Numbered from the stretch's first letter, positions 27,867 through 47,833 are shown. The stretch: DNA of 64,000 nt from an uncultured Candidatus Rokubacteria bacterium (GCA_963762145.1 CAVXJS010000021.1:704001-768000); one strand, 5' to 3'. Made by a program: numbers and translations. The notes: generated by a model from the sequence alone, not told the origin.

Positions 27867-27882
27867 TGGCACCTCGGTTGCA
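27867..27882 (+). promoter_or_regulatory. Sigma-54 -24/-12 promoter
   Basis: TGGCACCTCGGTTGCA matches TGGCAC-N5-TTGCW; upstream of ATG 27904. Confidence 0.75.
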
Positions 27883-27903
27883 ACTCTCGTCGACGTGCCC
27901 AGC

Positions 27904-28545
27904 ATGACCACGATGCGAACGTGGAGCCCGTGGGCGCGCGAGTACGCGCGAGAGCCGGGACGCTACGTCTTCGGCACCGCGCCGTCGGACTGGGCGCGCG
28001 AGGTGGCCTGCCTCGTCCGGCCCGGCGACGCGGTGCTGGACCTGGGCTGCGGCGAGGGACGCGACAGCGTGTTCTTCGCCGGGCTGGGCGCGATGGTCAC
28101 CGGCCTGGACGAGGCCGCCGGCGGTCTCGACAAGGCGCGGCGCCTGGCCCGCCAGCGCCGCGTGCGCGTGCGCTGGATCGAGGGCGACATGACCGAGGTG
28201 TTGCCCGCGGGCCGCTTCGACCTGATCTTCTCGTGCGGCACCATCCACTACGTGCCCCGGAGCGAGCGCCGGTGCCTATTCCGGCGCCTCGCGGCCATGA
28301 CGCGCCCGGGCGGGCACCAGGCGCACGTGGTCTTCACCGACCGGCACGTGCACGAAGAGAAGGGGGAGATCGTGGACTACTTCACCGCGGGAGAGCTGCG
28401 TGAGGCGTTCGTCGAGTGGCAGGTCCTGCGAAACGGCGAGCGCATGATCAGCTGCGCCCAGGACGGGAGCGTGCACGGCCATTCCGTCGAGGAGCTGGTG
28501 GCCGCGCGGCCGGTGGTGCCGGCGCCGTGGCCGGCCGAGCCGTGA
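27904..28545 (+). CDS. Class I SAM-dependent methyltransferase (TehB-like)
   Basis: VLDLGCGEGRDSVF, FDLIFS.GT.HY, TRPGG. Confidence 0.88.
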   Translation: MTTMRTWSPWAREYAREPGRYVFGTAPSDWAREVACLVRPGDAVLDLGCGEGRDSVFFAGLGAMVTGLDEAAGGLDKARRLARQRRVRVRWIEGDMTEVLPAGRFDLIFSCGTIHYVPRSERRCLFRRLAAMTRPGGHQAHVVFTDRHVHEEKGEIVDYFTAGELREAFVEWQVLRNGERMISCAQDGSVHGHSVEELVAARPVVPAPWPAEP

Positions 28546-28552
28546 TCCGCCT

Positions 28553-29200
28553 CTAGGATGCGCGTCGGTCCCGGGCGCCGACTCGGCTCGCCGTCCGCGC
28601 CAGACGAGCGAGGTCGAGCTCGATCGAGTCGCGCATGTCCGCCTTCAGCGTGCGCCGCATGTGGGCGAGCGCCCGGGTGTGGTCGGTCGGCGTCCGGCCC
28701 ACCACGCAGTCCGGCGGCACGACGAGCTCGTAGCCCCGCATGTAGGCATCCTGCGCGGTGAACAGCACGCAGATGTCGGTCAGAAGCCCGGTGAGGATCA
28801 GCGTCCTCGCCTCGAAATGCTCCAGCAGGAGCTCCAGGGTCGTCGAGAAGAACCCCGAATGCCGCGGCTTCAGGACGAAATAGTCCCGCGCGTCGGGACG
28901 GAGCCGCCGGGTCACGACGCGGCCCGGGGAGGCCCGCCGGCCGCAGTGCGCGACGACCCTCCGGAAGTCGGACCGCCAGCGGCCAAAGTTGTCGTTCACA
29001 TAGACCGCCGGGACGCCGGCGCGCCGGGCCCGGCCCTTCAGCCGGCGGATCCGCTCCGCCATGGGCCCCGCTCCGGCGAGCACCTCCCGGGCGCCCTCGA
29101 AGGTGAAATCGTTGATCGCGTCGATCACCAGCAAGACGACCGGGCTCGCGTCCGGCGCACGGCCATCGAGATCGTTCCCCCGGCCGCGACGACGGATCAT
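28553..29200 (-). CDS. Isochorismatase-family cysteine hydrolase
   Basis: LLVIDAINDF, YVNDNFG.WRSDF, LKP.HSGFF.T.L, TDICVLFTA.DAYMR. Confidence 0.9.
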   Translation of the reverse strand: MIRRRGRGNDLDGRAPDASPVVLLVIDAINDFTFEGAREVLAGAGPMAERIRRLKGRARRAGVPAVYVNDNFGRWRSDFRRVVAHCGRRASPGRVVTRRLRPDARDYFVLKPRHSGFFSTTLELLLEHFEARTLILTGLLTDICVLFTAQDAYMRGYELVVPPDCVVGRTPTDHTRALAHMRRTLKADMRDSIELDLARLARTASRVGARDRRAS

Positions 29201-30273
29201 CGGACGGGGCGCCGCCGCTCGAGCAGACGGAGCACCACGCGCTCGTCCGGCTGCAGCGCAAAGCGGGGCCCGGCGCGTGGACGCCCCACGATGGTCACCG
29301 GCGGACCCAGCGCAGCCTCCTGGAAGGCCTCGAGGACCGCGGGATGGATGTAGCACTTCCGGCAGATGGCGGGCGTATTCCGGAGCTGCTGGGCGACCGC
29401 CGCCACGGCTTGCGTGATGTGCTTCCGGGCGCGCGTAGGACTACCCGGGTCCCGCCCCCGCAGCGCCACCGCGGCGAGCACGGTGCCGCCCCAGGTGCGA
29501 AAGTCCTTGGCGGTGAACTCGGCTCCGAAGATCTCCCGAAGGTAGGCGTTGACGTCGGCCGAGTCGATCGTCTGCCGCTGGCCGTCGTCGTCCACGTACT
29601 GGAACAGCTCGTGACCGGGCAGGTCCTGGCACTGCCGGACCACGCGCGCCAGCCGGCGGTCGGTGAGCGCGACCACGTGCGGCTTGCCACCCTTGCCGCG
29701 GAACTCGAACCGCACGCGGCCCCCGTCGACCCGCACGTGCTTCGCGCGGAGGGTCGTGAGCCCGTAGGATCCGTTCTGGCGCGCATACTCCTCGTTGCCG
29801 ACCCGGATGAGGGTGGTCTCCAGCAGCCCCACGACGGCGGCGAGCACCTTCTCGCGCGGGAGGCCGGCGCGGCTCACGTCGTCCTGGACGCGCCGGCGAA
29901 TGCGCGGCAGGGCGCGGCCGAAGTCGATCATGCGGGCGTACTTGGTCTCGTCGCGGATCTCGCGCCAGCGCGAATGATACCGGTACTGCTTGCGGCCTCG
30001 CGCGTCCCGTCCCACCGCCTGGATGTGCCCGTTCGGCGCCGGGCAGATCCACACGTCGGTCCAGGCGGGAGGGATGGCGAGGGCTCGGATCCGGGCGAGC
30101 GTCTGGCCATCGCGTATCGGCCCGCCGTCGGCGGCCCGGTACCGGAACCCGCGGCCGCTTCTGATGCGGGCGATGCCGGGGGCGGTGTCGCTGACGTATC
30201 GCAACCGGCCGGACGCCGCCGCATCAATCGACTGGGCGGAGGCGGTGGCAGGCGCCGGGACCAGAGTGCCCAC
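29197..30273 (-). CDS. Bacterial DNA topoisomerase IB
   Basis: IPPAWTDVWIC, DARGRKQYRYH, IRVGNEEY, FRGKGGK, FTAKDFRTW, RNTP.ICRKCYIHP (catalytic Tyr). Confidence 0.95.
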   Translation of the reverse strand: MGTLVPAPATASAQSIDAAASGRLRYVSDTAPGIARIRSGRGFRYRAADGGPIRDGQTLARIRALAIPPAWTDVWICPAPNGHIQAVGRDARGRKQYRYHSRWREIRDETKYARMIDFGRALPRIRRRVQDDVSRAGLPREKVLAAVVGLLETTLIRVGNEEYARQNGSYGLTTLRAKHVRVDGGRVRFEFRGKGGKPHVVALTDRRLARVVRQCQDLPGHELFQYVDDDGQRQTIDSADVNAYLREIFGAEFTAKDFRTWGGTVLAAVALRGRDPGSPTRARKHITQAVAAVAQQLRNTPAICRKCYIHPAVLEAFQEAALGPPVTIVGRPRAGPRFALQPDERVVLRLLERRRPVR

Positions 30274-30274
30274 G

Positions 30275-32200
30275 TCACGCGCTCCGACGACGGGCCCGGC
30301 CCGGCCGTCGGGAGGCCGGCGGCGCGGCCGGCGGAGCCAGCGCGCGCGTCGTCCGTGCCGTGATCGCCTGATCCACGGAGAAGAAATCGGCCCAGGGATC
30401 CTTGCGGAGTCGCTTCAGCACCGTCTCGACGGTGAATGACTCCGGCCTCGTCTTCGCCGAGAGCTCGGACCAGGCGAGCGGCGTGGAGACCGGCGCGCCC
30501 CGCTTCGCGCGTGGCGAGTAGGCCGCCACCGAGGTCGCGCCGCGCACGTTCCGCAGATAGTCGATGAAGATACGACCGCGCCGGGCCGCCTTCAGCGGAT
30601 TGATCGTGTAGCGCTCCGGCGCCCGGCGGGTCATCTCGGCGCCGATACCTTCGCCCAGCGATCGCAGCGCGTCCCAGCCCGCCTCGGGACGGAGCGGCAC
30701 CACCACGTGGAGCCCCTTGCCGCCGGTGGTCTTCACGAAGCTCACGAGGCCGAGGTCCTTCAGGAGCGCGCGCGACTCCTCGGCCGCCTCCACCACGCGC
30801 GCCCACGGCAGGCCCGGCGCCGGATCGAGATCGAGGACGAGCCGATCCGGCCGCTCGAGCCGCTCGACCCGCGTGCCCCAGGGATGGATCTCGAGCACCC
30901 CGATCTGGGCGAGGGCGACGACGCCCGCCAGATCGTCCACGTAGAGGTACGACGCGGTGCCGCCGCCGCGCTCGCGGATGCGCACGCGCTTGACCTGCTT
31001 CGGGACCCCCGGCGCGGCGTGCTTCTGATAGAAGCAGGCGCCGCGCTCACCCTCGGGACAGCGGACGATGCTCAGCGGCCGATCCGCCACGTGGGGCACC
31101 ATCCAGTCCGCGACCGCTTCGTAGTAGCGGGCGAGGCCGAGCTTGGTGATCGCCTGGTCGCGGAAGAGGACGCGGTCCGGATGCGTGAGCGTGACGCCGG
31201 CCACCTCGACCGGACCGTCGCTGCCGCCCGCGATCGGATGCGCGCGCGCCGGTCTCGGGATGCGGCCCGTCTCGCGGACGATCCGGGAGGCGGGCTTGTC
31301 CTCGCGGAGGCCCTGGAACGCGGGATGGCGCAGCAGCCCGTCGCGCGTCCACTCGGTGAACGCGACCTCGGCCACCAGCTCGGGCCTCACCCAGTGCGCG
31401 CGGGCGGGCGGCCGCGGGCCGTGGGGCGCGAACGGCGAGTCGCGCCGCTCGAGCTTGCGCAGCCGCGCGCCCAGGCGCTCGAGCGTGGTCTGGTCGAACC
31501 CGGTGCCGACGCGCCCGGCGTAGACGAGGTGGCCGTCGCGGTCGTGCACCCCGAGGAGCAGCGAGCCGAACTCCGCGCGCGCGCCGTCCGGGTCGGTGTA
31601 CCCGCCGATCACGAGCTCCTGCCGCGCCACGCACTTCACCTTGAGCCACGCCGACCCGCGCCCGGAGCGATACGACGCGCTCCTCTGCTTCGCGATGATA
31701 CCCTCGAGGCCCAGGCGGCAGGCGCGATCGAACACCCGCTGGCCGGGAGTGTCGAAGTGCTCGGAGTATCGGAGGCGGCCGCGGCGCCGTTTGAGCAGCC
31801 GGGCCAGGAGCGTCTTGCGCTCCACCAGCGGCAGCGGCCGCACGTCACGTCCGTCGAGAAAGAGCAGGTCGAAGGCCACGTAGACGAGGCTCCGGCCGGC
31901 CTCGAGCTGATCGGCCTGCTGAAGTGCCTGGAAACTCGAGACCCCGGCCCGATCGAGCGCGACGATCTCGCCGTCCAGCAGCGCCTCCTTCACCGGGAGC
32001 ACCGCCGCGGCCTCCGCCACCGTGGGGAACCGCGCGGTCCAGTCCTGGCGGTTGCGGGTGAGCAGCTTGACGCGGCCGCGCTCGATCCGGAGCAGGATCC
32101 GGTAGCCGTCGAGCTTGATCTCGTGCACCCACCCGTCTCCGGGCGGCGGCCCGGACACCAGCGTGGCGAGCTGGGGCGCGACCCACGCGGGCAGCGTCAT
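30275..32200 (-). CDS. ligD: NHEJ DNA ligase D (ligase + polymerase domains)
   Basis: HEIKLDGYR, EGIIAK, WLKVKC, LRHP.F.GLREDK; POL domain FYQKH, LDLDP, TTGGKGLHV, FIDYLRN. Confidence 0.95.
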   Translation of the reverse strand: MTLPAWVAPQLATLVSGPPPGDGWVHEIKLDGYRILLRIERGRVKLLTRNRQDWTARFPTVAEAAAVLPVKEALLDGEIVALDRAGVSSFQALQQADQLEAGRSLVYVAFDLLFLDGRDVRPLPLVERKTLLARLLKRRRGRLRYSEHFDTPGQRVFDRACRLGLEGIIAKQRSASYRSGRGSAWLKVKCVARQELVIGGYTDPDGARAEFGSLLLGVHDRDGHLVYAGRVGTGFDQTTLERLGARLRKLERRDSPFAPHGPRPPARAHWVRPELVAEVAFTEWTRDGLLRHPAFQGLREDKPASRIVRETGRIPRPARAHPIAGGSDGPVEVAGVTLTHPDRVLFRDQAITKLGLARYYEAVADWMVPHVADRPLSIVRCPEGERGACFYQKHAAPGVPKQVKRVRIRERGGGTASYLYVDDLAGVVALAQIGVLEIHPWGTRVERLERPDRLVLDLDPAPGLPWARVVEAAEESRALLKDLGLVSFVKTTGGKGLHVVVPLRPEAGWDALRSLGEGIGAEMTRRAPERYTINPLKAARRGRIFIDYLRNVRGATSVAAYSPRAKRGAPVSTPLAWSELSAKTRPESFTVETVLKRLRKDPWADFFSVDQAITARTTRALAPPAAPPASRRPGRARRRSA

Positions 32201-32739
32201 GCCGGCTTCGCGCGGGCTGGCTTCGCCCGGGCGGGCTTCGAGCGGGCGGGCGCGTCTCGCTCCTTGATCAGCAGCCAGTTCTCCTTTCGCGCGGGCTTCC
32301 GATCGCCGTCTCGATCACGCATGCGCACCAGCGCCCAGCCACCGCGGAGCTTGCGCCCGTGCAGGACGAACTTCAACGAGCCCTTTCGATAGCCGGCGCG
32401 CGGGTCGCCCGCCGGCTCCCACCAGCCCCGGTCCCAGATCGCGACCTGGCCGGCGCCGTAGTGCCCCTCCGGGATCTCCCCGTGAAAGCTTCCGTACTCG
32501 AGGGGGTGATCCTCGACGTGCACGGCCAGACGCTTCTGGCCCGCGACCGGCGCCGGCTGCTTCGGCACCGCCCAGCTCTTCAGCACGCCGTCCAGCTCGA
32601 GCCGGAAGTCATAGTGCAGGTGGCTCGCGGCATGGCGCTGGATCACGAAGGAGAGACGCTTCGCGGCCCGACGGGGGCGCCCCCGGGGCTCCGGTGTGTG
32701 AGCGAAATCCCGCTTGCGACGATAGACCGCGAGGCTCAC
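32197..32739 (-). CDS. Stand-alone LigD 3'-phosphoesterase (PE) domain protein
   Basis: Y.RKRDF..TPEP, FVIQRH.A.HLHYDFRLE, SWAVPK, VEDHPLEY, NWLLIKERD. Confidence 0.93.
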   Translation of the reverse strand: MSLAVYRRKRDFAHTPEPRGRPRRAAKRLSFVIQRHAASHLHYDFRLELDGVLKSWAVPKQPAPVAGQKRLAVHVEDHPLEYGSFHGEIPEGHYGAGQVAIWDRGWWEPAGDPRAGYRKGSLKFVLHGRKLRGGWALVRMRDRDGDRKPARKENWLLIKERDAPARSKPARAKPARAKPA

Positions 32740-32742
32740 CGC

Positions 32743-33567
32743 TCAGGCGGACTTGCGTCGACGAGGCCGGCGCCGGTCCTCTCCCGTCTTGGCGAGGCTC
32801 TGCTTGAGCAGCTCCGCGATGTCGATGATGTCGGCCCGCTTGCGTGGCGTGGCCTCTTCCTCCGTCTCCGGCGCCGTCACCAGCTTGCCCGACCGGCTGC
32901 GCTTCTTGATGAACGCCAGCAGCTCGTCCCGGTACTCGTCGTGGTACTGCGCGGGATCCCAGTCCTCGGTCATCTCCGCGATCAGCCGCTCCGCCATCTT
33001 GAGCTCCCGGTCCGCGATCTTGACCGTGGCGGGCACTTGGACCCGGGCCGGCTCGCGCAGCTCGGAGGCGTACCGCAGCACGTCGAGCACGAGGACCCGG
33101 TCGTGCACCACCACCGCGGCGAGATGCTGGCGCGTCTTCACCACGACCGAGGCCACCGCGAGCTTGCCGCTGCGCCGCAGGGCCTCGCGGAACAGCGCGT
33201 AGCCGCGCTCCCCGCCGCGGGTGGGCTCGAGATAGTACGGTCGATCGAAATAGATCGGCGGGATCGCGGTCGCTTCCACGAAGGCGAGCACGTCGATGCG
33301 CTGAGTGCGCTCGGGGCTCGCCCGCCGCAGGTCGGTGTCGCTGACGACCACGTACCGCCCGTTGGCCTGCTCCACGCCCCGCACGATCCGATCGCCCGGC
33401 ACCGGCTTCCCGGTCCGCTTGCTGATCTTCTGGTACCCGATCGGAGAGCTGTCCCGCTTGTCGAGCAGCGTGAAGTCCAGATCGTCGCGCTGCTCGGCCG
33501 TCACGAGGGACACCGGGATGTTGACGAGGCCGAAGCTGATGCTGCCGGTCCAGATCTTCGAGGGCAC
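32743..33567 (-). CDS. ku: NHEJ Ku protein
   Basis: IWTGSISFGLVNIPV, YFDRPYYL.P, Y.DEYR..L, short basic tail. Confidence 0.95.
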   Translation of the reverse strand: MPSKIWTGSISFGLVNIPVSLVTAEQRDDLDFTLLDKRDSSPIGYQKISKRTGKPVPGDRIVRGVEQANGRYVVVSDTDLRRASPERTQRIDVLAFVEATAIPPIYFDRPYYLEPTRGGERGYALFREALRRSGKLAVASVVVKTRQHLAAVVVHDRVLVLDVLRYASELREPARVQVPATVKIADRELKMAERLIAEMTEDWDPAQYHDEYRDELLAFIKKRSRSGKLVTAPETEEEATPRKRADIIDIAELLKQSLAKTGEDRRRPRRRKSA

Positions 33568-33580
33568 GTCGCGCCTCCGC

Positions 33581-34552
33581 TCAGCCGGCGGCGGCGACCG
33601 CGACCCGACCCGGCGACGGGGCCGGTACGTCGATCAGGTCGGCCCACGCCGGCCGCACCCGCATCCGGGCGAGCACGGAGAGGACCCGACGGGGACTCCC
33701 CAGATCACACCAGGTCACCCGGGGAAGACGCGAGACCGCGAGGTGCTCCAGATGTGCCTCCAGGACAGCTCGCGAGAAGCTCGCCCGGGCCATGAAGGAG
33801 TAGGCTTCCTGCACCGCCTCCACTTCCCGCTCCGAGTCGAGCCAGGGCCGGATGCCGGCCAGGCACCGGCTCATCTCGGGCAGCGCGCACGCGCCCAGCT
33901 CCACGAGCGCTCGCGCGCGCGCGACGGTGATCGCGGTGTTCCACAGGCACGCGGTGGTCAGACACGTCTGGACGCGATCCTCGGAGGGCTTCTCCCAGAA
34001 CTGGCGCACCCTCGAGACGACGCCGTTGTCGCCATCGATGGGCGCGCCAGGCTCGACCCAGCCGTACTCCCTCTCGGGCGATGTCGGCTGGGCCCCCAGC
34101 AATGTCACGTGATCGGGGCGCCGGGCGAGCACCCCGGCCACCTGCTGGACGTGGGCCATGAAGGTGGCCTCGCCCAGGATGAAGTGATCGGACGGGAGGA
34201 CGACCACCGTCGCGCCCGGATCGCGCCAGGCGATCCACTGGGCCGCGTACAGGATCGCGGCGGCGGTGCCTCGATCGGCCGGCTGCACGAGCACGTAGGG
34301 CGGCTGGGCAGAGCCCGCGAACTCCTCGGCGATGTAGGCGAGATGCTGACGGACCGTGACCACGACGGTGCGCTCCGGCGAGATACCCAGAGCCGCGCGG
34401 TCCAGCGTCTGCCGCAGCAGGCTTCGCGGCCCCAGGAGCTTGACGAACTGCTTCGGCCGATCCTCACCGAGCATGCGCCGGACGATGGGTCGAAGCCGGA
34501 CCCCCTCGCCGCCGGCGAGGACGATGCCCCAGAGGCCCCCGCGATCGCCCAT
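33581..34552 (-). CDS. Mannose-1-phosphate guanylyltransferase-like sugar-phosphate nucleotidyltransferase
   Basis: IVLAGGEG.RL, PKQF, QP..RGTA, PSDH, YGWV, W.DLG. Confidence 0.88.
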   Translation of the reverse strand: MGDRGGLWGIVLAGGEGVRLRPIVRRMLGEDRPKQFVKLLGPRSLLRQTLDRAALGISPERTVVVTVRQHLAYIAEEFAGSAQPPYVLVQPADRGTAAAILYAAQWIAWRDPGATVVVLPSDHFILGEATFMAHVQQVAGVLARRPDHVTLLGAQPTSPEREYGWVEPGAPIDGDNGVVSRVRQFWEKPSEDRVQTCLTTACLWNTAITVARARALVELGACALPEMSRCLAGIRPWLDSEREVEAVQEAYSFMARASFSRAVLEAHLEHLAVSRLPRVTWCDLGSPRRVLSVLARMRVRPAWADLIDVPAPSPGRVAVAAAG

Positions 34553-34557
34553 CGGGG

Positions 34558-34794
34558 CTACGCGTTGACCTTGTGCTCGGGCACGCCCGCCATCTCCGCG
34601 CAGTGCGCGCAGCAGAAATAGCGCCCGTCCGGCGCCTCGACGCCGTGGCCGATGATGCGGCACGCGCAGTGCGCGCACGTCGGCGCCATCGCGTGCAGGG
34701 CACACTCGAACGAATCGAAGGTGCCCTTCCGCTCAGGGGTGGTGATCACCATGGCCTTTTCGTAGTCGTTGCCGCAGACGTCGCAACGTCCCAT
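34558..34794 (-). CDS. Cys/His-rich small protein (prokaryotic metallothionein-like)
   Basis: CDVCGNDY, FDSFECA.H..AP.CAHC.CRIIGHGVE, FCCAHCA; GGAGG RBS. Confidence 0.85.
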   Translation of the reverse strand: MGRCDVCGNDYEKAMVITTPERKGTFDSFECALHAMAPTCAHCACRIIGHGVEAPDGRYFCCAHCAEMAGVPEHKVNA

Positions 34795-35105
34795 CGCTTG
34801 TCCTCCCGGGGCAACCCGTTCACGAGGCGCTCCGCCACGATCGCAGGGTCTTCGAACGAGTACGGGGTGCGGCGCGCGGCCCGCTCCCGCTGCCGCCGGG
34901 CCACATGCATCGGCGGAACCGCGCTCAGCGCCACCAGCGCGACCAGGGGCGAGAGGAAGAACGCCAGCACGAACCACGCGACGGGCTCCCGGCCCTTTTC
35001 CCACGCGACCCAGGCGGTCATGGACGCTCCGCCCACCCAGGCCGCGAACCCGAACAGCGTGAGCAAGAATCCCAGCCTCATGAAGTCGGCCACCAGCTCG
35101 TTCAT
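34746..35105 (-). CDS. Small membrane protein
   Basis: Two hydrophobic segments around VA.EKGR...WF; sits within the operon. Confidence 0.55.
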   Translation of the reverse strand: MNELVADFMRLGFLLTLFGFAAWVGGASMTAWVAWEKGREPVAWFVLAFFLSPLVALVALSAVPPMHVARRQRERAARRTPYSFEDPAIVAERLVNGLPREDKRWDVATSAATTTKRPW

Positions 35106-35109
35106 GTTC

Positions 35110-41044: not shown

Positions 41045-41104
41045 GGCAGGCGGGGGACGGGCGCGGCCACCGCGCGAAGCGGAGAGGCGGGCATGGCGGG
41101 CGCC

Positions 41105-41998: not shown

Positions 41999-42789
41999 GC
42001 GCGAGCCCCCGCGACCGTCGTGCCGTCCGCGGGCGCGCCATGGCCAGCCGGCTCCTCGCCAACCGGGATCTCGACCACACGGAAGGGAAGCTGATCGGGG
42101 AAGCGCCGGCGCAGGAGCGGGAGCGCCACGTTGTACACCGGCACCCCCGCCGAGGTGGTGCCCTCGAGCTGGCCGCGGTGGGCGTGCCCGTGGAACACCG
42201 CATCGGGCCGGTAGCGATTGATCGGCTCCTCGAGGCGGCTCGAGCCCAGGAACGGATAGATCTCGACGGGCTCACCGTCCACGGTGGCGCCGATGGGCGC
42301 GTAATGGAGTACCGCCACGCGGCCCCGCGTGCGCAACCGGGCGAGCGCCGATTCGAGCTTGAGCGCCTCCTCGACCGCCGCGGCCACGAACGCCTTCACC
42401 GGGCCTTCGCCCCACGACTGCAGCGCGCGGGCCCCGAATCCTCCCGGGAAGCCCTTGGCCCCCGCGAAGCCCACACCCTGCACCTCGATCGCGGTGCCGT
42501 CCAGCACCGAGACGCCGGCCGCGTCGGTCAGGATCCGGGCCACCTCGTCGGGGACACCTGATTCGAAATCATGGTTGCCGAGCACCGCGACCTTCGGCAC
42601 CTTCGTCGCACTGAGTTCCTTGGCCAGGACGCGCGCCTCCTCCGGGGTGCCGTAGTCCGTGAGGTCGCCGCAGAGGACGAGCACGTCAGCGCTTTCCGCA
42701 ATCTTTGCGAAGAGGGACTGGAAGGCGCCCTCCGAGGTCCGGGTGCAGTGGAGGTCGCCGACGGCGGCGACGCGTAGCGACGGAGTCAT
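41995..42789 (-). CDS. Calcineurin-like metallophosphoesterase
   Basis: GDLH, GDLTD, GNHD, LHY, HGHAH. Confidence 0.9.
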   Translation of the reverse strand: MTPSLRVAAVGDLHCTRTSEGAFQSLFAKIAESADVLVLCGDLTDYGTPEEARVLAKELSATKVPKVAVLGNHDFESGVPDEVARILTDAAGVSVLDGTAIEVQGVGFAGAKGFPGGFGARALQSWGEGPVKAFVAAAVEEALKLESALARLRTRGRVAVLHYAPIGATVDGEPVEIYPFLGSSRLEEPINRYRPDAVFHGHAHRGQLEGTTSAGVPVYNVALPLLRRRFPDQLPFRVVEIPVGEEPAGHGAPADGTTVAGARA

Positions 42790-42802: not shown

Positions 42803-42818
42803 TGCAACCCCCATGCCC
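42803..42818 (-). promoter_or_regulatory. Sigma-54 promoter for the phosphoesterase-NTase operon
   Basis: Minus strand GGGCATGGGGGTTGCA; -12 C lies 15 nt before ATG 42789. Confidence 0.7.
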
Positions 42819-42886
42819 GGGGGCGGCCTCGCCAAACCTCGTGTTACCGGCAGGCGGCCGCGCGAAGCCACCCGGGTCGGAAGCTC

Positions 42887-43384
42887 CTACCCGGTAGATT
42901 TGCCTCGCCCCGTCCCCCCCGGCCGGGCCGTGAGCCCCGAAGCCAGGAGCGCGCCGAAGCCGAGCAGGAACAGGCCGCACCGGGCGGCGTGCGTGAACTC
43001 CCACTGATCCCGGAGCCGGGTCCAGTCGGCGGGTACGCTGGCCGGCGTCCAGGCCGCGAACGCCGCGTTCACCGGGTTGACGAGGAGCCAGAACAGCACG
43101 TGCGCCAGCACCAGGCACGCGGCCCCCGCCGCCGCCCAGCGACGCGCGGCGACGGGTGATGTGCGCGACCTTGCAAGACCGGCAGCCCAGATCACCGCCA
43201 GGGCGACGGCGCCGACCTCGATCACCGCGCCGACGATCGCGAAGTAGCGATAGAGCGTATGGGTGACGGTCACGTAGAGCGCCGGATCATACGTGCGACG
43301 GACCGGCATCTCGAGCACGTGCGCGAGCGGCGCGCCGATCGCCAGCGCAGCGAGCAGCAGGGTGATGAAGGCCAGGGCGACCAT
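42887..43384 (-). CDS. DUF1772/anthrone oxygenase-like membrane protein
   Basis: AHVLEMP, PVN....W....P.DW..LRDQWE..H. Confidence 0.8.
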   Translation of the reverse strand: MVALAFITLLLAALAIGAPLAHVLEMPVRRTYDPALYVTVTHTLYRYFAIVGAVIEVGAVALAVIWAAGLARSRTSPVAARRWAAAGAACLVLAHVLFWLLVNPVNAAFAAWTPASVPADWTRLRDQWEFTHAARCGLFLLGFGALLASGLTARPGGTGRGKSTG

Positions 43385-43397
43385 GGCCGCTGTTGAC

Positions 43398-43413
43398 AGC
43401 AACCGCGGTGCCA
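43398..43413 (-). promoter_or_regulatory. Sigma-54 promoter
   Basis: Minus strand TGGCACCGCGGTTGCT, full consensus; -12 C lies 15 nt before ATG 43384. Confidence 0.75.
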
Positions 43414-43446: not shown

Positions 43447-43462
43447 TGGCAGCGGGCTTGCA
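43447..43462 (+). promoter_or_regulatory. Sigma-54 promoter (divergent partner)
   Basis: TGGCAGCGGGCTTGCA; -12 C lies 15 nt before ATG 43476. Confidence 0.7.
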
Positions 43463-44310: not shown

Positions 44311-47300
44311 TCAGGCCGCGCCGCGCCGTCCGGCCGCGGCGAGCCCGGCCGCGATGTCGATGAGGCGGGCCGGATCCACCGGCTTCGAGAGGTGCGCGTC
44401 GAAGCCGGCCGCGAGGGCGCGGCGCGTGTCCTCCTCGCTCGCGTACGCGGTCAACGCGATCGCGGGCAGCCGCCGGCCCAGGCCTTCCTCCATCGCCCGC
44501 AGGCGCCGCACCAGGACGTAGCCGTCCTCGACCGGCATGCCGATGTCGCTGATCAGGAGATCGGGCCGCTCGTCCCGGATCGCGTCGAGGGCCTGGGCGG
44601 CCGAATCAGCGACCCGCACCTGCGCCCCGCCGCGCTCGAGCATGAAGCGCATCACCTCGCGGGCGTCGGCCTCGTCGTCCACGATGAGCAGGCGCAGGCC
44701 CGAGAGGCTCTGGCGCACCGGCCCGTCGGTGCTCACCGCGGCGGGCGCGCGCTCGGCGTCGCGGACCGCGGCCGCCACCGGCAGGTGCACGCTGAACGTC
44801 GCGCCCTGCCCCTCGCCCTCGCTCTGCACCGTCACGCTGCCCCCGTGGAGCTCGACGAGATGCCGGACGATGGCCAGGCCGAGCCCGAGGCCGCCGTAGG
44901 CGCGGTTGGTGCTGCTCTCGGCCTGGCGGAAGCGCTCGAACACGTGGGGCAGGAACTCGCGCTTGATGCCCGCCCCGGTGTCGGCCACCGTGAGCATCAC
45001 GTCCGAGTTGCGCCCGGCCACCGACACGGTCACCCGCCCGCCCTTCGGCGTGAACTTGATCCCGTTCGAGAGCAGGTTCCAGAGCACCTGCTGCAGCCGG
45101 TCCGGATCGCCCATCACCGCGGGCAGCTCTGGCTCGATCCGCGTCTCGAGCGTCACGTTCTTGGCGAGCGCGGCGGGCTCCACCGCCTCCATCGCCGCGC
45201 GCACCACCGCGGGCAGGCGAACCGGGCGGGCCTGCAGCCGCAGCTTCCCGGTGACGATGCGCGACACGTCGAGGAGATCCTCGATGAGCTGGCCGAGCGT
45301 CTTGGTGCTCCGCTCGATGGCGTCTAGCGCGCGCTCCGCGCTCGCCGGATCGAGATTGGGCGAGCGCAACAGGTAGGCCCAGTTCAGCAGGGGCTGGAGC
45401 GGGCTGCGCAGCTCGTGCGACAGGGTGGCCAGGAACTCGTCCTTGGTCCGGCTCGCGCTCTCCGCCTCCGCGCGCATCTGGTGCTCGTGGGCCAGCATGC
45501 GCATGTTGTGGATGGCGATGGCCGCGTACTCCGCGAGCTGGCGCAGGACGGTCTCGGTGCGGTCGTTGAACGGCTTCGCGGTGCGCCGGTGCACGTAGAG
45601 CAGTCCCTCGACGCGGCCCTCCACCATGATCGGCACCACCAGGGTGGCCACGAGATCCTCGAGCTCGACGATGTCTCCGCGGGCTCGCGTGATCCGCGGG
45701 TCCACCGCCATGTTGTCGCTGCGGAACGGGTGGCCCGACTCGAGCACGAGCCCGCCCGCGCCGAAGCCCGGCTCGACCACCAGGCGCTCCGACGCGCCCC
45801 GGTACTCGCCGGCTCGGTTCCGCATGACGATGGAGCCGCTCTCCGTCTCGCGGAGGGCCACGCTGGTGAGATCGCACCGGCAGAGCTCCTTGGCGCCGTC
45901 CACCACGCGCTGCAGGACGGTGGACACGTCCTGGGCGGTGTTCAGCGAGCGGGCCAGCGCGGCCAGGACCTCCGCCTCGCGCCGCTGCCGACCCGCTTCG
46001 ACGAAGAGGATCGCGTTCTCGACCGCGACCGCGGCCTGCACCGCGAGACCCTCGAAGCCCGCGAAGTCCTCGAGCCGGAACGGGACGTCCTTGCGCCGGG
46101 CCGCCACCAGCACGCCCAGGAGCCGGTCTCGGCTCACGAGGGGCTGCGCCATCGCGTGGCGCACCCCGAGACGGACCACCTCCGGGAGCGCGTAGGGCGA
46201 ATTCGGGTAGTCGTTGACGAGCAGCGCGCGGCGCTCGCTCGCGCAGCTCGCGACCATCCCGCCCGCGGCCGGGAACGGGGCCTCCGACTCCGGCTCGGCC
46301 CGGCCCCAGACCCGGCCGAGGGACTGGCTGTCCTCGTCGAAGAGATAGGCGAAGCCGGCGCCCTCGAACAGCCGCCCCGCCCGCTCCACGATCATGCCGA
46401 GGAGACGGTCCAGGTCGAGCTCGGCGCTGAGATCGCGCTGCACGGTGGCGAGGGCCTCGAGCTGCTCGCGGCGTGATGTCTCGAGGGCGAAGAGCCGCGC
46501 CTTCTCGAGCGCGACGGCGGCCTGGTTGGCGAAGTCCTGCAGCCGCCGGATCTCGTCCGCCCCGAAGGTGCGGCCCGTCGTGTCCCCGACCGCGAGCACG
46601 CCGGTGATCAGGCCTCCGATCGCCAGGGGCACCGCGAGCACCGAGCCGTGGCCCGACTTCTCGACCAGCGCGCGCGTCTCGGGGGTCAAGGTGAGACGGG
46701 GATCGGTCAGGACATCGGGCGTCGAGACCGGGCGGCCCTCGGTCACCGCGAAGCCGGCGAGCATCTGGCCTCGTGGAATCCGGGTCCCCGGGGGAAACGG
46801 GCCCCCTTCGCCCGAGGTCGCAACCACCACGAGCTGATGCGTCACGTGATCGAGCTCCCACAGCGCGGACAAGGTCCCGCCGAGCAGGCCCCGGGTGGCC
46901 TCCGCGATGTGACGGCCCACGCTCCCGGCGTCGAGCGACTGCACGAGCGCCTCGCCCACCGCCGAGAGCGCCGCCGCGTCGCGCCGGGCCGCTCGCTCGC
47001 GCGCGAGGACGTCCGCCTGATCGCGCTCGATCGCGCGCCGCTCGGTCAGATCGCGGAATACCAGCACCACGCCCACCGTCTGTCCGGCGCGATCCCGGAT
47101 GGGGTCCGCGCCGCCCGCGATCGTGTGCTCGGCACCGCCGCGGCGCACGAGCAGGACGCCGGCGGGCAGCGCCGCCGTCCGGTGCTCGCGGAGCGCGCGC
47201 GCGGCCGGGCTCTCGGCCGGCGACCGGGTCTCCTCGTCGACAAGGCCGAAGACGGTCGCGAGGGCGCGGCCGCGGGCCTCGGCCGCCGGCCATCCGGTGA

Positions 47301-47760
47301 GCCGCTCCGCCGCCGCGTTCATGAACGTGATGCGCTCGGCGCGGTCGGTCACGACGACCGCGTCCCCGATGCTCGCGAGCGTGACCGCCATCTCCTCCTG
47401 CTGCGCGAGCGCGTGATCCTCGGCCCGGCGGCGCCCGGCGGCCAGCAGGCTGATGGCGACCGCCACGAGCACGAAGATGAGGAGACGGAGGAGGTCGTCG
47501 CCATAGGGCGCCTTGATGAAGATCAGGTGCCCAACGATCGAGACGGCGGTGGCCGCGAGCCCCGGGCCCAGACCTCCGTACCAGGCGCCGACGACCACCG
47601 CGGCCAGGAGCAGGACGAGCTGCGATCGCTCGGCCAGCGCCACGGACAGGTAGCTGCACGCGAGGGCCACGCCGACCGCCAGCAGGGCGGCGCCGTAGGC
47701 GTTGCGAGACTTCGCCGAGCGGAGAGCAAGCACGTCGAATCGAACCGCGGGCCGCTGCAT
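44311..47760 (-). CDS. Hybrid sensor histidine kinase (DUF4118-PAS-3xGAF-HisKA-HATPase-REC)
   Basis: AWYGGLGPGL TM module, TLASIGDAVVVTD PAS, three GAF repeats, SHELRSPL, REC; start at 47760 or 47784. Confidence 0.92.
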   Translation of the reverse strand: MQRPAVRFDVLALRSAKSRNAYGAALLAVGVALACSYLSVALAERSQLVLLLAAVVVGAWYGGLGPGLAATAVSIVGHLIFIKAPYGDDLLRLLIFVLVAVAISLLAAGRRRAEDHALAQQEEMAVTLASIGDAVVVTDRAERITFMNAAAERLTGWPAAEARGRALATVFGLVDEETRSPAESPAARALREHRTAALPAGVLLVRRGGAEHTIAGGADPIRDRAGQTVGVVLVFRDLTERRAIERDQADVLARERAARRDAAALSAVGEALVQSLDAGSVGRHIAEATRGLLGGTLSALWELDHVTHQLVVVATSGEGGPFPPGTRIPRGQMLAGFAVTEGRPVSTPDVLTDPRLTLTPETRALVEKSGHGSVLAVPLAIGGLITGVLAVGDTTGRTFGADEIRRLQDFANQAAVALEKARLFALETSRREQLEALATVQRDLSAELDLDRLLGMIVERAGRLFEGAGFAYLFDEDSQSLGRVWGRAEPESEAPFPAAGGMVASCASERRALLVNDYPNSPYALPEVVRLGVRHAMAQPLVSRDRLLGVLVAARRKDVPFRLEDFAGFEGLAVQAAVAVENAILFVEAGRQRREAEVLAALARSLNTAQDVSTVLQRVVDGAKELCRCDLTSVALRETESGSIVMRNRAGEYRGASERLVVEPGFGAGGLVLESGHPFRSDNMAVDPRITRARGDIVELEDLVATLVVPIMVEGRVEGLLYVHRRTAKPFNDRTETVLRQLAEYAAIAIHNMRMLAHEHQMRAEAESASRTKDEFLATLSHELRSPLQPLLNWAYLLRSPNLDPASAERALDAIERSTKTLGQLIEDLLDVSRIVTGKLRLQARPVRLPAVVRAAMEAVEPAALAKNVTLETRIEPELPAVMGDPDRLQQVLWNLLSNGIKFTPKGGRVTVSVAGRNSDVMLTVADTGAGIKREFLPHVFERFRQAESSTNRAYGGLGLGLAIVRHLVELHGGSVTVQSEGEGQGATFSVHLPVAAAVRDAERAPAAVSTDGPVRQSLSGLRLLIVDDEADAREVMRFMLERGGAQVRVADSAAQALDAIRDERPDLLISDIGMPVEDGYVLVRRLRAMEEGLGRRLPAIALTAYASEEDTRRALAAGFDAHLSKPVDPARLIDIAAGLAAAGRRGAA

Positions 47761-47817
47761 CTCGTCAGGCTCCCGCCATATCATACTCTCGGGGCGCGGC
47801 CCGGAACGTGCTGAGAA

Positions 47818-47833
47818 CGCAATGGCCGTGCCC
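47818..47833 (-). promoter_or_regulatory. Sigma-54 promoter for the hybrid kinase
   Basis: Minus strand GGGCACGGCCATTGCG (GG-N10-GC). Confidence 0.6.

Follow-up and report, generated by a model that had tools for sequence, protein, structure and literature searches.

Six probable sigma-54 promoters around a Ku/LigD operon, four of them likely in one stress regulon with a shared upstream activator site

The closest described counterparts of the promoters discussed here are those served by the NtrC family (NtrC, ZraR, and AtoC type), in which a -24/-12 promoter is paired with an enhancer about 100 nt before the start and is read by an activator with a receiver, an AAA+ domain, and a Fis-type helix-turn-helix (HTH), whose own gene is autoregulated, as we infer here. 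Sigma-54 depends on an activator powered by ATP and is free of leaky basal activity. In terms of gene content the nearest relatives are the responses governed by SigB in Bacillus, RpoS in Escherichia coli, and EcfG/PhyR in Alphaproteobacteria—these share with the present set hallmark stress genes (here CsbD, BON/OsmY-type, superoxide dismutase, Ku/LigD, Usp, Hsp20, and a ribosome hibernation factor), complex sensory kinases that feed in, and positive feedback on regulator genes. Ku and LigD are under SigG or EcfG elsewhere. Sigma-54 control of envelope-stress and nucleic-acid-repair genes has precedents in PspF (phage shock) and RtcR (RNA repair), and the Borrelia Rrp2-RpoN-RpoS cascade places sigma-54 atop a stress regulon. 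Finally, mRNAs whose start codon lies at or a few nucleotides from the predicted 5' end, without a Shine-Dalgarno sequence, resemble the leaderless mRNAs of Actinobacteria, Deinococcus, and archaea, which are described for sigma-70-type -10 promoters.

Here we describe a locus of a soil bacterium with six probable sigma-54 promoters, four of which we consider likely to belong to one NtrC-type-activated stress regulon defined by an upstream activator site (UAS). The shared UAS, its genome-wide regulon, and the near-leaderless spacing are new here; no prior description of such a regulon emerged from the literature searched.

Six boxes and the units behind them

A pattern scan of the window—the whole 64-kb stretch of DNA analysed—returned exactly six GGCA-N6-TTGC matches, those listed in an earlier note on this DNA, in which each position is 1 lower (0-based). 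The features are collected in Table 1. The bare count is only mildly unusual, as shuffled windows hold a mean of 1.45 boxes (sd 1.29) and 2 of 100 shuffles reach six; the strong part of the evidence is placement. Each of the six units has its box on the correct strand, as the note had claimed: all six boxes are intergenic and face a same-strand start codon from non-coding DNA, 14 to 35 nt away. The probability of six out of six falling so by chance is an estimated 1e-9, because about 3.3% of strand-specific window positions lie equally close upstream of a predicted start (a rough gene caller made for this analysis finds about 70 genes in the window, with 32 unit starts). Flanking genes had been said to lack a box, and across the whole 64 kb no other transcription unit has an exact match; for none of the three one-mismatch variants in non-coding DNA (8956, 13483, and 20719) does a same-strand start lie within 650 nt.

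Table 1. Features of the six units (1-based coordinates). Distances run from the -12 C to the start codon; predicted transcription starts (TSS) are +/- 2 nt; PWM, position weight matrix score.
Feature	Coordinates	Strand	Remarks
UAS, methyltransferase promoter (weak)	27776..27800	+	PWM 13.8-14.2
Box, methyltransferase, gTGGCACctcggTTGCA	27868..27881	+	14 nt to GTG 27895; predicted TSS 27893
SAM-dependent methyltransferase, single-gene unit	27895..28545	+	Pfam Methyltransf_25 2.8e-20
Ku/LigD operon, ten genes	28553..35828	-	Pfam; predicted co-transcription
Gene 10: isochorismatase-family hydrolase	28553-29200	-
Gene 9: topoisomerase IB	29197-30273	-
Gene 8: LigD ligase + primase-polymerase	30275-32200	-
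Gene 7: LigD phosphoesterase	32197-32739	-
Gene 6: Ku	32743-33567	-
Gene 5: NTP_transferase	33581-34552	-
Gene 4: Cys-rich protein, 78 aa	34558-34794	-
Gene 3: membrane protein, 119 aa	34746-35105	-
Gene 2: 26-aa peptide		-
Gene 1: unknown membrane protein	35190-35828	-
Box, Ku/LigD operon, gGGCACagaagTTGCT	35858..35871	-	30 nt to ATG 35828; Shine-Dalgarno (AGGAGGA) leader follows; predicted TSS 35846
UAS, Ku/LigD operon, TCTTACCGGGTAAACCGTTCCGATT	35931..35955	-	PWM 25.1; centre 72 nt upstream of GG
Metallophosphoesterase-kinase operon, six genes	35943..42789	-	Pfam; predicted co-transcription
Gene 6: luciferase-like oxidoreductase	35943-36911	-
Gene 5: PAS hybrid histidine kinase, 634 aa	36953-38857	-
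Gene 4: type I phosphodiesterase	38842-40377	-
Gene 3: VTT/DedA membrane protein	40382-41044	-
Gene 2: NTP_transf_5 nucleotidyltransferase	41105-41998	-
Gene 1: metallophosphoesterase	41995-42789	-
Box, metallophosphoesterase operon, gGGCATgggggTTGCA	42804..42817	-	15 nt to ATG 42789, no Shine-Dalgarno; predicted TSS 42792
UAS, metallophosphoesterase operon, ATCTACCGGGTAGGAGCTTCCGACC	42875..42899	-	PWM 24.0; centre 70 nt upstream of GG
Anthrone_oxy/DUF1772-like membrane protein, 165 aa, single-gene unit	42887..43384	-	Pfam 8.4e-8
Box, Anthrone_oxy/DUF1772-like gene, cTGGCACcgcggTTGCT	43399..43412	-	15 nt to ATG 43384; predicted TSS 43387
Box, 275-aa protein, cTGGCAGcgggcTTGCA	43448..43461	+	15 nt to ATG 43476; predicted TSS 43473
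Unknown-family protein, hydrophobic N-terminus, 275 aa	43476..44303	+
Hybrid histidine kinase, 1157 aa (DUF4118, PAS, 3 GAF, HisKA, HATPase, receiver)	44311..47784	-	Pfam
Box, large hybrid kinase, gGGCACggccaTTGCG	47819..47832	-	35 nt to ATG 47784; predicted TSS 47807
UAS, large hybrid kinase, CCTTACCGGGTTTAACTTACCTGTC	47904..47928	-	PWM 21.5; centre 84 nt upstream of GG

Genes of the Ku/LigD operon are separated by 0-13 nt or overlap from 35190 downward, and a terminator-like match at 34636-34620 falls within the ORF of the Cys-rich protein; gaps in the metallophosphoesterase operon are at most 60 nt. Both hybrid kinases lie in box-led units, as proposed earlier. The 275-aa protein, probably exported, has no Pfam family, and the protein atlas gives it only 'hypothetical protein' clusters.

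The genome carries a complete rpoN (490 aa, with AID, CBD, and DBD domains) and about 21 sigma-54 activator (enhancer-binding protein) genes, seen as 21 full-length Sigma54_activat matches (E 4e-58 or better); all lie outside the window, where the earlier note had suggested that an activator might be encoded. Genome-wide there are 206 boxes, and by the same rough custom caller, the source of all genome-wide gene coordinates, 172 of these (83%) are intergenic versus 19% of the genome, and 106 lie within 150 nt of a same-strand start. Sixteen control patterns (reversed, permuted, or differently spaced) yield 2-20 such promoter-like sites, and 15-49% of their matches are intergenic, so that the enrichment before start codons is strong; spacings of 4, 5, 7, and 8 leave 2-8 promoter-like sites versus 106. 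Flanks of the intergenic boxes follow TGGCAC-N5-TTGCT, with T before GG in 91 of 172 and C after GGCA in 105 of 172, and a mild A/T-rich patch lies 16-30 nt upstream of the GG.

In same-genus genomes all six boxes are conserved at orthologous upstream regions, within flanking DNA that has diverged. Exact boxes precede the methyltransferase in 12 of 12 loci and the metallophosphoesterase in 12 of 12 having upstream DNA, and the large hybrid kinase in 7 of 9 with such DNA. The Ku-operon box is present as GGGCACAGAAGTTGC (in one locus GGCATAGAAGTTGC) in 11 of 13 loci by pattern, with one more at an extract edge and one not covered. The box at 43448 is exact in nine of 13 loci and a GGCC variant in three, and its divergent partner at 43399 is conserved in the four loci seen carrying it (L227-L230); the Anthrone_oxy/DUF1772-like gene is missing in several relatives, where the neighbouring units are directly divergent. 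The second Ku paralogue, widely conserved across the taxonomic order, lacks a box within 1400 nt at every locus examined (0 of 16). Because rpoN and about 21 activators are present, the box is enriched in intergenic DNA genome-wide, and same-genus relatives conserve it, the six are very probably real sigma-54 promoters. There are also 19 sigma-70-family matches in this genome, among them a group-2 sigma whose best match is RpoS (320 bits, under the 378.7 cut-off), and therefore sigma-54 need not be the sole stress sigma; no member reaches the cut-off of the SigB/F/G-family models.

Three of the boxes had been reported to end exactly 15 nt before an ATG without a Shine-Dalgarno sequence, which is correct, and a fourth has its C 14 nt before a GTG. 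Relatives confirm that methyltransferase start, which they keep 13-15 nt past the box; an alternative ATG lies at 27904. An ORF-opening ATG or GTG stands 14-16 nt after the C at 28 of 172 boxes versus 5 of 246 control sites. About one-sixth of sigma-54 promoters thus have this spacing, and four of the six described here are among them. With this spacing mRNA leaders would therefore be about 2-4 nt, so near-leaderless transcripts, which the earlier note had proposed for three of the six units, are implied. Contigs from RNA libraries over the locus are pieces of coding sequence only, uninformative on starts, strand, or level. A literature search on leaderless mRNAs together with sigma-54/RpoN found nothing on such fixed spacing.

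A shared, probable upstream activator site

Four of the six promoters have in common a 20-25 bp element, approximately cTTACCsGGTAag-N4-cTTCCg, whose centre lies 70-85 nt upstream of the -24 GG. To our knowledge, it matches no known enhancer. In orthologue comparisons strong conservation is confined to the UAS and the box: in 12 of 13 same-genus loci the Ku-operon UAS keeps its spacing and scores at least 18, and the DNA in between is unconserved; TACCsGGTA-AGAG-sTTCC is visible before the metallophosphoesterase in 12 of 12; the kinase site scores at least 15 in 9 of 9; and the weak methyltransferase copy has a matching site in 12 of 12 orthologous promoters (12.3-24.1). In this genome the PWM scan places no UAS within 200 nt of the divergent pair at 43399 and 43448. 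In seven relatives' loci (L226, L231-L234, L236, and L238) the 43448-type box or its variant has a UAS in divergent orientation about 65-125 nt upstream, which in most of these is the UAS of the metallophosphoesterase promoter.

A UAS scoring at least 14 accompanies 66 of 367 intergenic boxes. The PWM was trained on box-upstream DNA, which in itself creates part of the association between UAS and box; independent evidence comes from the k-mer test, from scanning the whole genome, and from the footprints in orthologues. The 8-mer TCTTACCG occurs in 14 of 172 box-upstream regions versus 14 of 4303 background pieces (p 3e-15), and CTTACCGG in 15 of 172 versus 22 of 4303 (p 5e-14). Palindrome-box pairs within 400 nt of a box number 44, with 28 in the bins from -140 to -61. 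Scanning the whole genome at a score of at least 16 gave 78 matches, 62 of them intergenic and 50 with a box 40-160 nt downstream. The UAS thus marks about 50-66 sigma-54 promoters genome-wide.

Regulon content, candidate activators, and competing readings

Forty further UAS promoters serve genes including CsbD, a triple-BON protein, PRC-barrel, YHS, HHH_3, an ABC1 kinase, and cytochrome oxidase; DUF5670 with an Fe/Mn superoxide dismutase; PolX with a LigD primase-polymerase (a second LigD polymerase); two MlaC; a glycosyltransferase with a debranching-type hydrolase; and two more hybrid kinases. Such a gene set resembles a programme for general stress, desiccation, or dormancy, with non-homologous end joining among its functions. 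Of the 56 regulon proteins examined, 25 match no Pfam family, so the label 'stress' rests on the named genes. The earlier note had placed all six units in one stress/dormancy regulon rebuilt on RpoN; genome-wide gene content favours such a regulon, but the shared UAS reaches only four of the six. Its likely members here are the methyltransferase (weakly), the Ku/LigD/topoisomerase IB operon, the metallophosphoesterase-kinase operon, and the large hybrid kinase.

Of the 66 promoters with a UAS scoring at least 14, two lie ahead of sigma-54 activator genes, and these two top the list with UAS scores of 26.9 and 26.0. Both genes, C15:346802-348202 and C19:238387-239757, encode receiver, AAA+, and Fis-type HTH domains, giving the search for NtrC-family genes two UAS-linked candidates. 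The proteins are 55% identical, with near-identical HTH regions, and reach no NCBIfam equivalog model at cut-off (closest are AtoC, NtrC, NtrX, and ZraR). Counting against the C15 candidate, its sigma-54 contact loop reads GAFTDA versus GAFTGA in C19. Close orthologues of the C15 gene have the box in 4 of 4 loci and a UAS scoring 26-29 in 3 of 4, and a small DHp-only gene follows in 4 of 4; in other genera of the family the closest homologues (52-61% identity) mostly lack an upstream box or UAS.

Sigma-54 dependence, the predicted start sites and co-transcription, the identity of the activator, the phosphorelay, and induction by stress are all inferred from these sequence features. One or both of the paralogous response regulators would bind the UAS; the phosphorylated activator would loop to the closed complex of RNA polymerase and sigma-54 at the box, and ATP hydrolysis would open it. 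The activator genes' own top-scoring UAS copies would provide positive autoregulation, the hybrid kinases within the regulon may contribute feedback, and the DHp-only protein, presumably co-transcribed with the C15 activator, may relay phosphate to it from hybrid kinases.

The promoters could instead be real but not one regulon, answering to different activators or signals, with the UAS read by several or some paralogues and 'general stress' a loose label for a mixed set. The roughly 21 activators, the two with near-identical HTH regions, the two promoters lacking a UAS, and 126 exact intergenic boxes without a UAS of at least 14 all point this way; many of the 71 first genes examined at non-UAS promoters are also stress-type, and these form a separate island (C21:1119-1193 kb). 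We nevertheless regard it as unlikely, given the fixed spacing and conservation of the UAS at four of the six, the divergent UAS near the 275-aa-protein promoter in seven relatives' loci, and the continued linkage of the six units on the same contigs in several relatives.

It is also improbable that a real regulon serves cell-envelope remodelling or a developmental/resting-cell programme rather than general stress. The many members located in the membrane, periplasm, or envelope (MlaC, a class A penicillin-binding protein, a peptidoglycan-binding protein, VTT/DedA, a DUF748/YhdP-like protein, and BON) would suit that role, as would non-UAS boxes ahead of MreB, bactofilin, MlaA, and OmpA, and it fits the view of sigma-54 as controller of the bacterial exterior outlined in PMC3162934. 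However, genes for cytoplasmic DNA repair and protection stand out (Ku, LigD, topoisomerase IB, PolX, the second LigD polymerase, superoxide dismutase, and CsbD), and both readings could apply at once, since both kinds of gene would belong in a resting-cell programme.

Less probable still is a UAS bound by a repressor or architectural protein, with activator sites elsewhere or activators that act without binding DNA. The A/T-rich patch means that more than one protein may shape these promoters, but the exclusive conservation of UAS and box, the repeats of the UAS and its place about 95-110 nt upstream of the predicted start, which fit NtrC-family enhancers, and the two top scores before activator genes argue against it. 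That the boxes are chance matches or another repeated element, with sigma-70-type promoters driving the units, is highly improbable: shuffling occasionally equals the window's count, and the consensus scan used cannot detect high-GC promoters, but placement, enrichment over the 16 controls, exact spacing dependence, and conservation in relatives all oppose it.

Comparison with known systems

The preferred reading, a UAS-defined stress regulon on sigma-54, suggests that this lineage would run a large stress programme via sigma-54 instead of the usual stress sigma factors, and it is in this choice of sigma factor that it departs from SigB, RpoS, and EcfG responses. Unlike those of the described NtrC-family activators, its targets would be some 50-66 stress, repair, and signalling promoters rather than nitrogen, zinc, or fatty-acid genes, with input from hybrid kinases, perhaps via the DHp-only protein. 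PspF, RtcR, and Rrp2 control single operons or act via RpoS; here, in contrast, predicted sigma-54 promoters directly precede dozens of stress genes, as well as genes that repair DNA rather than RNA. The near-leaderless starts likewise differ from leaderless mRNAs elsewhere—their fixed spacing is to a sigma-54 -12 element.

Boxes in the window and the genes behind them

Exactly six matches to GGCA-N6-TTGC, a candidate sigma-54 -24/-12 promoter (hereafter, the box), occur in the window, and these stand where the earlier note had placed them, the true coordinates each being one base higher (Table). The box count alone is weak evidence, because dinucleotide-preserving shuffles of the window contain 1.45 boxes on average and 2 of 100 reach six. 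As judged from sequence and gene layout, all six boxes lie in non-coding DNA and each is aimed at a gene start; since about 3.3% of strand-specific window positions are comparably close upstream of a predicted start, we estimate the chance of six out of six being so placed at about 1e-9. The boxes head six consecutive units among the roughly 32 unit starts predicted in the window by our own gene caller. Exact boxes are absent from the rest of the window, in agreement with the earlier remark that none was noticed before the flanking genes checked by eye, and none of the three one-mismatch variants in non-coding window DNA has a same-strand gene start within 650 nt.

Features discussed in the text. 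Boxes are exact matches to GGCA-N6-TTGC; UAS, the shared putative upstream activator site of about 25 nt; C14, C15, C19, and C21, contigs of the genome that holds the window.
Feature	Position	Strand	Start codon (distance past the -12 C)	UAS in this genome	Same-genus loci	Products or domains (Pfam)
Box, unit 1	window 27868-27881	+	GTG 27895 (14 nt past 27881)	score only 13.8-14.2 (orthologues in relatives up to 24.1)	box 12/12; UAS scores 12.3-24.1 in 12/12	SAM-dependent methyltransferase
Box, unit 2 (Ku operon)	window 35858-35871	-	ATG 35828 (30 nt past 35858), preceded by AGGAGGA Shine-Dalgarno	35931-35955, score 25.1, centred 72 nt upstream	box 11/13 (one more cut at extract edge, one not covered); UAS score 18+ in 12/13, fixed spacing	ten-gene operon, tightly packed
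Box, unit 3	window 42804-42817	-	ATG 42789 (15 nt past 42804)	42875-42899, score 24.0, 70 nt upstream	box 12/12 loci with upstream DNA; UAS visible 12/12	metallophosphoesterase, NTP_transf_5 nucleotidyltransferase, VTT/DedA protein, type I phosphodiesterase, 634-aa PAS hybrid kinase, luciferase-like oxidoreductase
Box, unit 4	window 43399-43412	-	ATG 43384 (15 nt past 43399)	none within 200 nt		membrane protein, DUF1772/Anthrone_oxy-like
Box, unit 5	window 43448-43461	+	ATG 43476 (15 nt past 43461)	none within 200 nt	9 exact boxes and 3 GGCC variants at 13 loci	secreted protein with hydrophobic N-terminus, probably exported
Box, unit 6	window 47819-47832	-	ATG 47784 (35 nt past 47819)	score 21.5, 84 nt upstream	box 7/9; UAS score 15+ in 9/9	1157-aa hybrid kinase: DUF4118, PAS, three GAF domains
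Leader of large hybrid kinase	window 47785-47818	-
Three small ORFs, Ku operon	window 34558-35189	-
NTP-transferase, Ku operon	window 33581-34552
NTP-transferase paralogue	C15:345287-346195
C15 activator gene	C15:346802-348202					receiver, AAA+, HTH_8
DHp-only gene	C15:348199-348561 (L072:1639-2001)					HisKA/DHp-like domain
Partner-switching-like genes	C15:352613-354649					SpoIIE-type phosphatase, RsbW-type kinase, STAS protein
C19 activator gene	C19:238387-239757					receiver, AAA+, HTH_8
Second DNA-repair operon	C19:189101-192471 (L075)			score 19.9		HHH_8, HHH_5, pol-beta thumb, PHP in first product
Second island	C21:1119000-1193000 (L340-L354)
Partial second Ku match	C14:306327-306773

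The Ku operon encodes, in order, an unknown membrane protein, a 26-aa peptide, a 119-aa membrane protein, and a 78-aa Cys-rich protein; an NTP-transferase, Ku, a LigD phosphoesterase, and a LigD ligase plus primase-polymerase; and finally a bacterial topoisomerase IB and an isochorismatase-family hydrolase. Below 35190 its genes overlap or are separated by gaps of 0-13 nt, and the long operons of the region are presumably co-transcribed. A terminator-like match upstream of the NTP-transferase and Ku genes was rejected, as it lies inside the well-formed 78-aa Cys-rich ORF. Three small ORFs fill the space between the first gene and the NTP-transferase: the 26-aa peptide is hydrophobic, and the Cys-rich protein has a weak metallothionein match below the cut-off. 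For the first product of the Ku operon and the secreted protein of unit 5 we found no Pfam family, and their atlas clusters are all 'hypothetical protein'.

A probable genome-wide sigma-54 signal with a shared putative enhancer

The genome that holds the window (6.26 Mb, 70% GC, 25 contigs) has soil MAGs as the closest relatives of one of its proteins. The earlier note had left rpoN and the activator genes to be located: the genome carries one complete rpoN copy of 490 aa with AID, CBD, and DBD domains (Pfam), and 21 full-length Sigma54_activat matches. Genome-wide genes were taken from our own crude caller, which uses codon log-odds and returned 5894 genes covering 81% of the genome. The proposed enrichment of boxes before starts holds on this scale—of the 206 boxes counted, 172 (83%) fall between genes, and 106 are followed within 150 nt by a start on the same strand. 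As controls we used 16 patterns: the box reversed, its two tetramers permuted in eleven ways, and spacings of 4, 5, 7, and 8. Each gave 2-20 promoter-like sites, with 15-49% of matches intergenic.

The sigma-54 promoter consensus is TGGCAC-N5-TTGCW, in which exactly one turn of the helix separates the GG element from the GC element. The six window boxes fit the GGCA-N6-TTGC form, the genomic signal vanishes at other spacings, and the flanks of the 172 intergenic boxes widen the motif to TGGCAC-N5-TTGCT. Boxes with a different base at the first T of TTGC are enriched too (195 of 430 intergenic), so the true number of promoters is probably greater than 172. We regard it as very probable that the boxes are sigma-54 promoters. 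A sigma-70 consensus scan was uninformative in this GC-rich genome, returning one site, within a gene, against 0.6 expected.

Upstream of the boxes there is a second element. Reading the upstream regions in the window revealed TACCGGGT about 80 nt before three of the six boxes, and an unbiased 8-mer count over the stretch from 20 to 220 nt before each of the 172 intergenic boxes ranked TCTTACCG, CTTACCGG, and TACCGGGT at the top. TCTTACCG is present in 14 of the 172 regions versus 14 of 4303 background pieces (p 3e-15), and CTTACCGG in 15 of 172 versus 22 of 4303 (p 5e-14). Copies of the palindrome TTACC-N-GGTAA (up to two mismatches) near boxes cluster 60-140 nt upstream; the bins from -140 to -61 hold 28 of the 44 palindrome-box pairs within 400 nt.

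A 25-nt weight matrix refined on the box-upstream regions has a consensus of approximately cTTACCgGGTAa-N4-cTTCCg. Scanned over both strands of the whole genome, it gives 78 sites at a score of at least 16 (62 intergenic, 50 with a box 40-160 nt downstream) and 151 at a score of at least 14 (107 intergenic, 77 with such a box)—an association that is partly circular, since the matrix was trained upstream of boxes. Free of this training are the k-mer test, the rarity of matches elsewhere in the genome, and the footprints in orthologues. The UAS accompanies 66 of 367 intergenic boxes, exact or first-T variant, and from the sites in the window we think there is a strong likelihood that four of the six units share an activator.

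A/T is mildly enriched 16-30 nt upstream of the -24 GG (0.44-0.49 versus a baseline of about 0.30-0.35); genome-wide, the enrichment occupies two 5-nt bins and is seen at boxes with and without the UAS. Recurrent TTTC-type patches were noticed by eye at the same place in the orthologue sets. Lying between enhancer and promoter, the A/T stretch may be a place where the DNA bends or an architectural protein sits.

The first gene of each unit was searched against up to 40 related genomes and the DNA upstream of the orthologues was read. The boxes, whose conservation in orthologous regions had been in question, are kept in same-genus loci (Table). The Ku operon box is nearly always identical (GGGCACAGAAGTTGC) and occurs at two sister-family loci as well (L191, L192); at the methyltransferase the position of the start codon, 13-15 nt past the box, is also conserved. 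The divergent box of the DUF1772-like gene is seen at four relatives' loci (L227-L230). In other genera, no box was found before the metallophosphoesterase at 13 loci, where a different gene lies directly upstream. Every set displays conserved blocks amid diverged DNA, the pattern expected of functional sites.

In seven relatives' loci (L226, L231-L234, L236, L238) a divergently oriented UAS is found some 65-125 nt ahead of the secreted-protein box, exact or variant. Most of these loci lack the DUF1772-like gene, so that the secreted-protein and metallophosphoesterase promoters stand back to back and the UAS is the one belonging to the latter. In the genome studied here, a gene inserted between them has probably carried that site about 500 bp away.

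Of 20 same-genus genomes searched, 13 carry the Ku copy of the window at 71-87% identity. A second Ku paralogue, 33-37% identical to this one, is present in most genomes of the order, and none of 16 loci of the paralogue (L209-L224) has a same-strand box within 1400 nt upstream. In the genome studied here, the second Ku appears only as a partial match, covering residues 2-150 within a 627-aa open frame. Additionally, a block (CTCAGCACGaTCCGGGCCG ... GGGTATGATgTGGCGG) in the 35-nt leader of the large hybrid kinase is kept in four relatives (L271-L274) despite being non-coding, and this may be a regulatory 5' leader.

The reach of the design was gauged with a strict pattern (ACCSGGT, 51-81 nt, box) in 121 genomes sampled from the phylum, with the pattern read backwards as the control. 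This genome has 11 matches (control 1), six same-genus genomes have 3-10, and three further genera of the family contribute one genome each, with 10, 6, and 4. Counts elsewhere are 0-3, near those of the control; hence, within the set searched, the UAS-plus-box design seems limited to this genus and a small number of related ones. One genome of the set (G084), with a count of 1, is marked as unpublished and supports no claim.

Putative regulon members, candidate activators, and predicted leaderless starts

Behind 40 further promoters with a UAS score of at least 16, we looked at 56 proteins in all, taking no more than the first four genes of any unit. Small protective proteins include CsbD, triple-BON, PRC-barrel, and YHS proteins, and a DUF5670 protein with an Fe/Mn superoxide dismutase; an HHH_3 protein and cytochrome oxidase subunits are also present. 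Envelope functions are represented by two MlaC proteins (one an operon-mate of a class A penicillin-binding protein) and an ABC1 kinase with a DUF748 protein, and carbohydrate functions by a glycosyltransferase with a glycogen-debranching/mannosylglycerate-hydrolase-type enzyme and by a HAD phosphatase-ATPase. Signalling genes comprise a 1899-aa HAMP-rich hybrid kinase, a 688-aa hybrid kinase, and two NtrC-type activators. A second DNA-repair operon encodes a PolX-type polymerase, whose start codon is 15 nt past the box, an unknown 204-aa protein, and a stand-alone LigD primase-polymerase. Genes typical of protection and repair are thus found behind UAS-linked promoters, with 25 of the 56 proteins lacking a Pfam family.

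Apart from the two NtrC-type activators, named here after their contigs C15 and C19, no sigma-54 activator gene was found behind a UAS-linked promoter, and the sites before these two have the highest UAS scores (26.9 and 26.0) among the 66 promoters scoring at least 14. The two proteins share 55% identity and an almost unchanged recognition helix region; in an alignment, the sigma-54 contact loop is a canonical GAFTGA in the C19 activator and GAFTDA in the C15 activator. Neither reaches an NCBIfam equivalog cut-off, the nearest models being AtoC, NtrC, NtrX, and ZraR. Close orthologues of the C15 activator (84-95% identity) carry the box in four of four cases and a site scoring 26-29 in three of four; homologues from five other genera (52-61% identity) mostly have no box or UAS upstream. 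In the proposed mechanism these activators would bind the UAS of the target promoters, and we give about an even chance to the C15 and C19 proteins being the right ones.

Directly after the C15 activator gene, and presumably co-transcribed with it, comes a gene for a 120-aa protein that consists only of a HisKA/DHp-like domain with an H-box, and such a gene follows the activator in four of four close orthologous loci. By analogy with Spo0B and ChpT, this protein may be a histidine phosphotransferase joining the hybrid kinases to the activator, to which it would pass phosphate from the kinases.

Several observations concern this neighbourhood. A paralogue of the Ku-operon NTP-transferase lies immediately upstream of the C15 activator gene and abuts the activator's promoter in one orthologous locus, L099. 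The activator at that locus, one of the four close orthologues, is 84% identical and has the same gene neighbourhood; the record title of its contig names an archaeal genus, and the contig is probably mis-binned. A few kb from the C15 activator, genes for a SpoIIE-type phosphatase, an RsbW-type kinase, and a STAS protein resemble a partner-switching module (N-terminal translations were read by eye).

The spacing between boxes and start codons is also distinctive. For each intergenic box we took the first ATG or GTG to open an ORF that has coding-type GC3 and runs for 50 codons or more, making no use of the gene caller. Start codons peak past the -12 C at 14, 15, and 16 nt (9, 16, and 3 cases), and 28 of 172 boxes have this spacing versus 5 of 246 control sites. 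Sigma-54 transcripts usually start 12 nt after the -12 C; the predicted leaders would therefore be about 2-4 nt long and without a Shine-Dalgarno sequence. In the window, four of the six promoters have this spacing and no Shine-Dalgarno. The 14-16 nt spacing lends indirect support to the predicted start sites. We know of no earlier systematic case of leaderless mRNAs from sigma-54 promoters—if confirmed, the fixed spacing would, to our knowledge, be the first.

A proposed role of sigma-54 in stress control, and comparison with known systems

Exact-box promoters without the UAS, of which 71 were examined for their first genes, have related contents: two Usp, an Hsp20, two BON, and six CBS-pair proteins; a ribosome hibernation factor, HU, two DksA-type proteins, hemerythrin, PsiE, KdpA, MlaA, and OmpA; many receiver, kinase, GGDEF/EAL, PilZ, and FecR proteins; and MreB, a bactofilin, and another activator. 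Many of these boxes lie in a second island on contig C21 that adjoins an activator gene (L004), their targets there including two Usp, Hsp20, BON, several CBS-pair proteins, the ribosome hibernation factor, HU, and DksA-type and DUF308 genes. This island resembles a distinct sigma-54 regulon of the dormancy type, which would have an enhancer of its own. As stress- and dormancy-type genes stand behind non-UAS boxes too, sigma-54 appears to drive at least two such gene sets.

Other stress sigma factors may also be at work. The genome has 19 sigma-70-family matches, none of which reaches the SigB/F/G cut-off; one 313-aa group-2 factor is closest to RpoS and falls below the RpoS cut-off. With the SigB/F/G and RpoS models checked, these 19 matches, the group-2 factor near RpoS among them, leave room for such factors.

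Window DNA is found in DNA runs of soil metagenomes, and runs labelled as RNA hold small shares of it (0.05-0.13). Contigs from four RNA-labelled runs are short, lie on coding parts, and are in some cases identical to the window, with DNA carry-over possible. A full-text literature search, with subscription journals outside its coverage, did not find sigma-54 tied to Ku/LigD, to a regulon of the CsbD/Usp/Hsp20 type, or to leaderless mRNAs, nor sigma-54 in this phylum.

The observation that opened this analysis has been borne out, and its interpretation is supported; the analysis adds to it a defined putative enhancer, a proposed regulon that spans the genome, candidate activators, and a spacing that points to leaderless mRNAs. 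Overall, we consider it likely that the boxes are sigma-54 promoters of a UAS-defined stress/dormancy regulon. Taken separately, a role of the regulon in stress or dormancy seems, from its gene content, somewhat more probable than another role, with induction by stress presumed. A joint reading, which we offer tentatively and rate slightly below an even chance, is that in this soil Candidatus Methylomirabilota lineage sigma-54 replaces RpoS, SigB, or EcfG. More than 170 promoters would directly run a stress/dormancy programme that includes end-joining DNA repair, a hibernation factor, Usp, and Hsp20; at least two sub-regulons would be defined by activators, one of them under an NtrC-type master activator that regulates its own gene and receives its signal through a hybrid-kinase phosphorelay. 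One promoter in six would yield leaderless mRNAs, pairing tight off/on promoters with Shine-Dalgarno-independent translation suited to resting cells.

General stress responses are the textbook case of control by an alternative sigma-70-family factor. If the joint reading is true, the system would be a fourth design of general stress control, Ku/LigD end joining included, in which expression is strictly activator- and ATP-gated. It would provide a testable regulatory logic—promoter, 25-bp enhancer, and two candidate activators—for an abundant uncultured soil phylum, and roughly 50-66 promoters could serve as a marker set for drying, rewetting, and dormancy states in soil metatranscriptomes.

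Among known systems, the closest in architecture are NtrC-type sigma-54 regulons, which the system here resembles in its box, its putative enhancer some 100 nt ahead of the predicted start, and its candidate activators of the response-regulator kind. At the level of sequence it has the features of this class. Precedents for sigma-54 in stress or repair are PspF, RtcR, and Rrp2-RpoN-RpoS, which involve single operons or act indirectly. In gene content the likeness is to the SigB, RpoS, and EcfG general stress regulons; however, those are defined by a sigma-70-family master factor, whereas the promoters here are of the sigma-54 type. The regulon would thus work like a general stress response, yet would not be a member of the RpoS, SigB, or EcfG systems.
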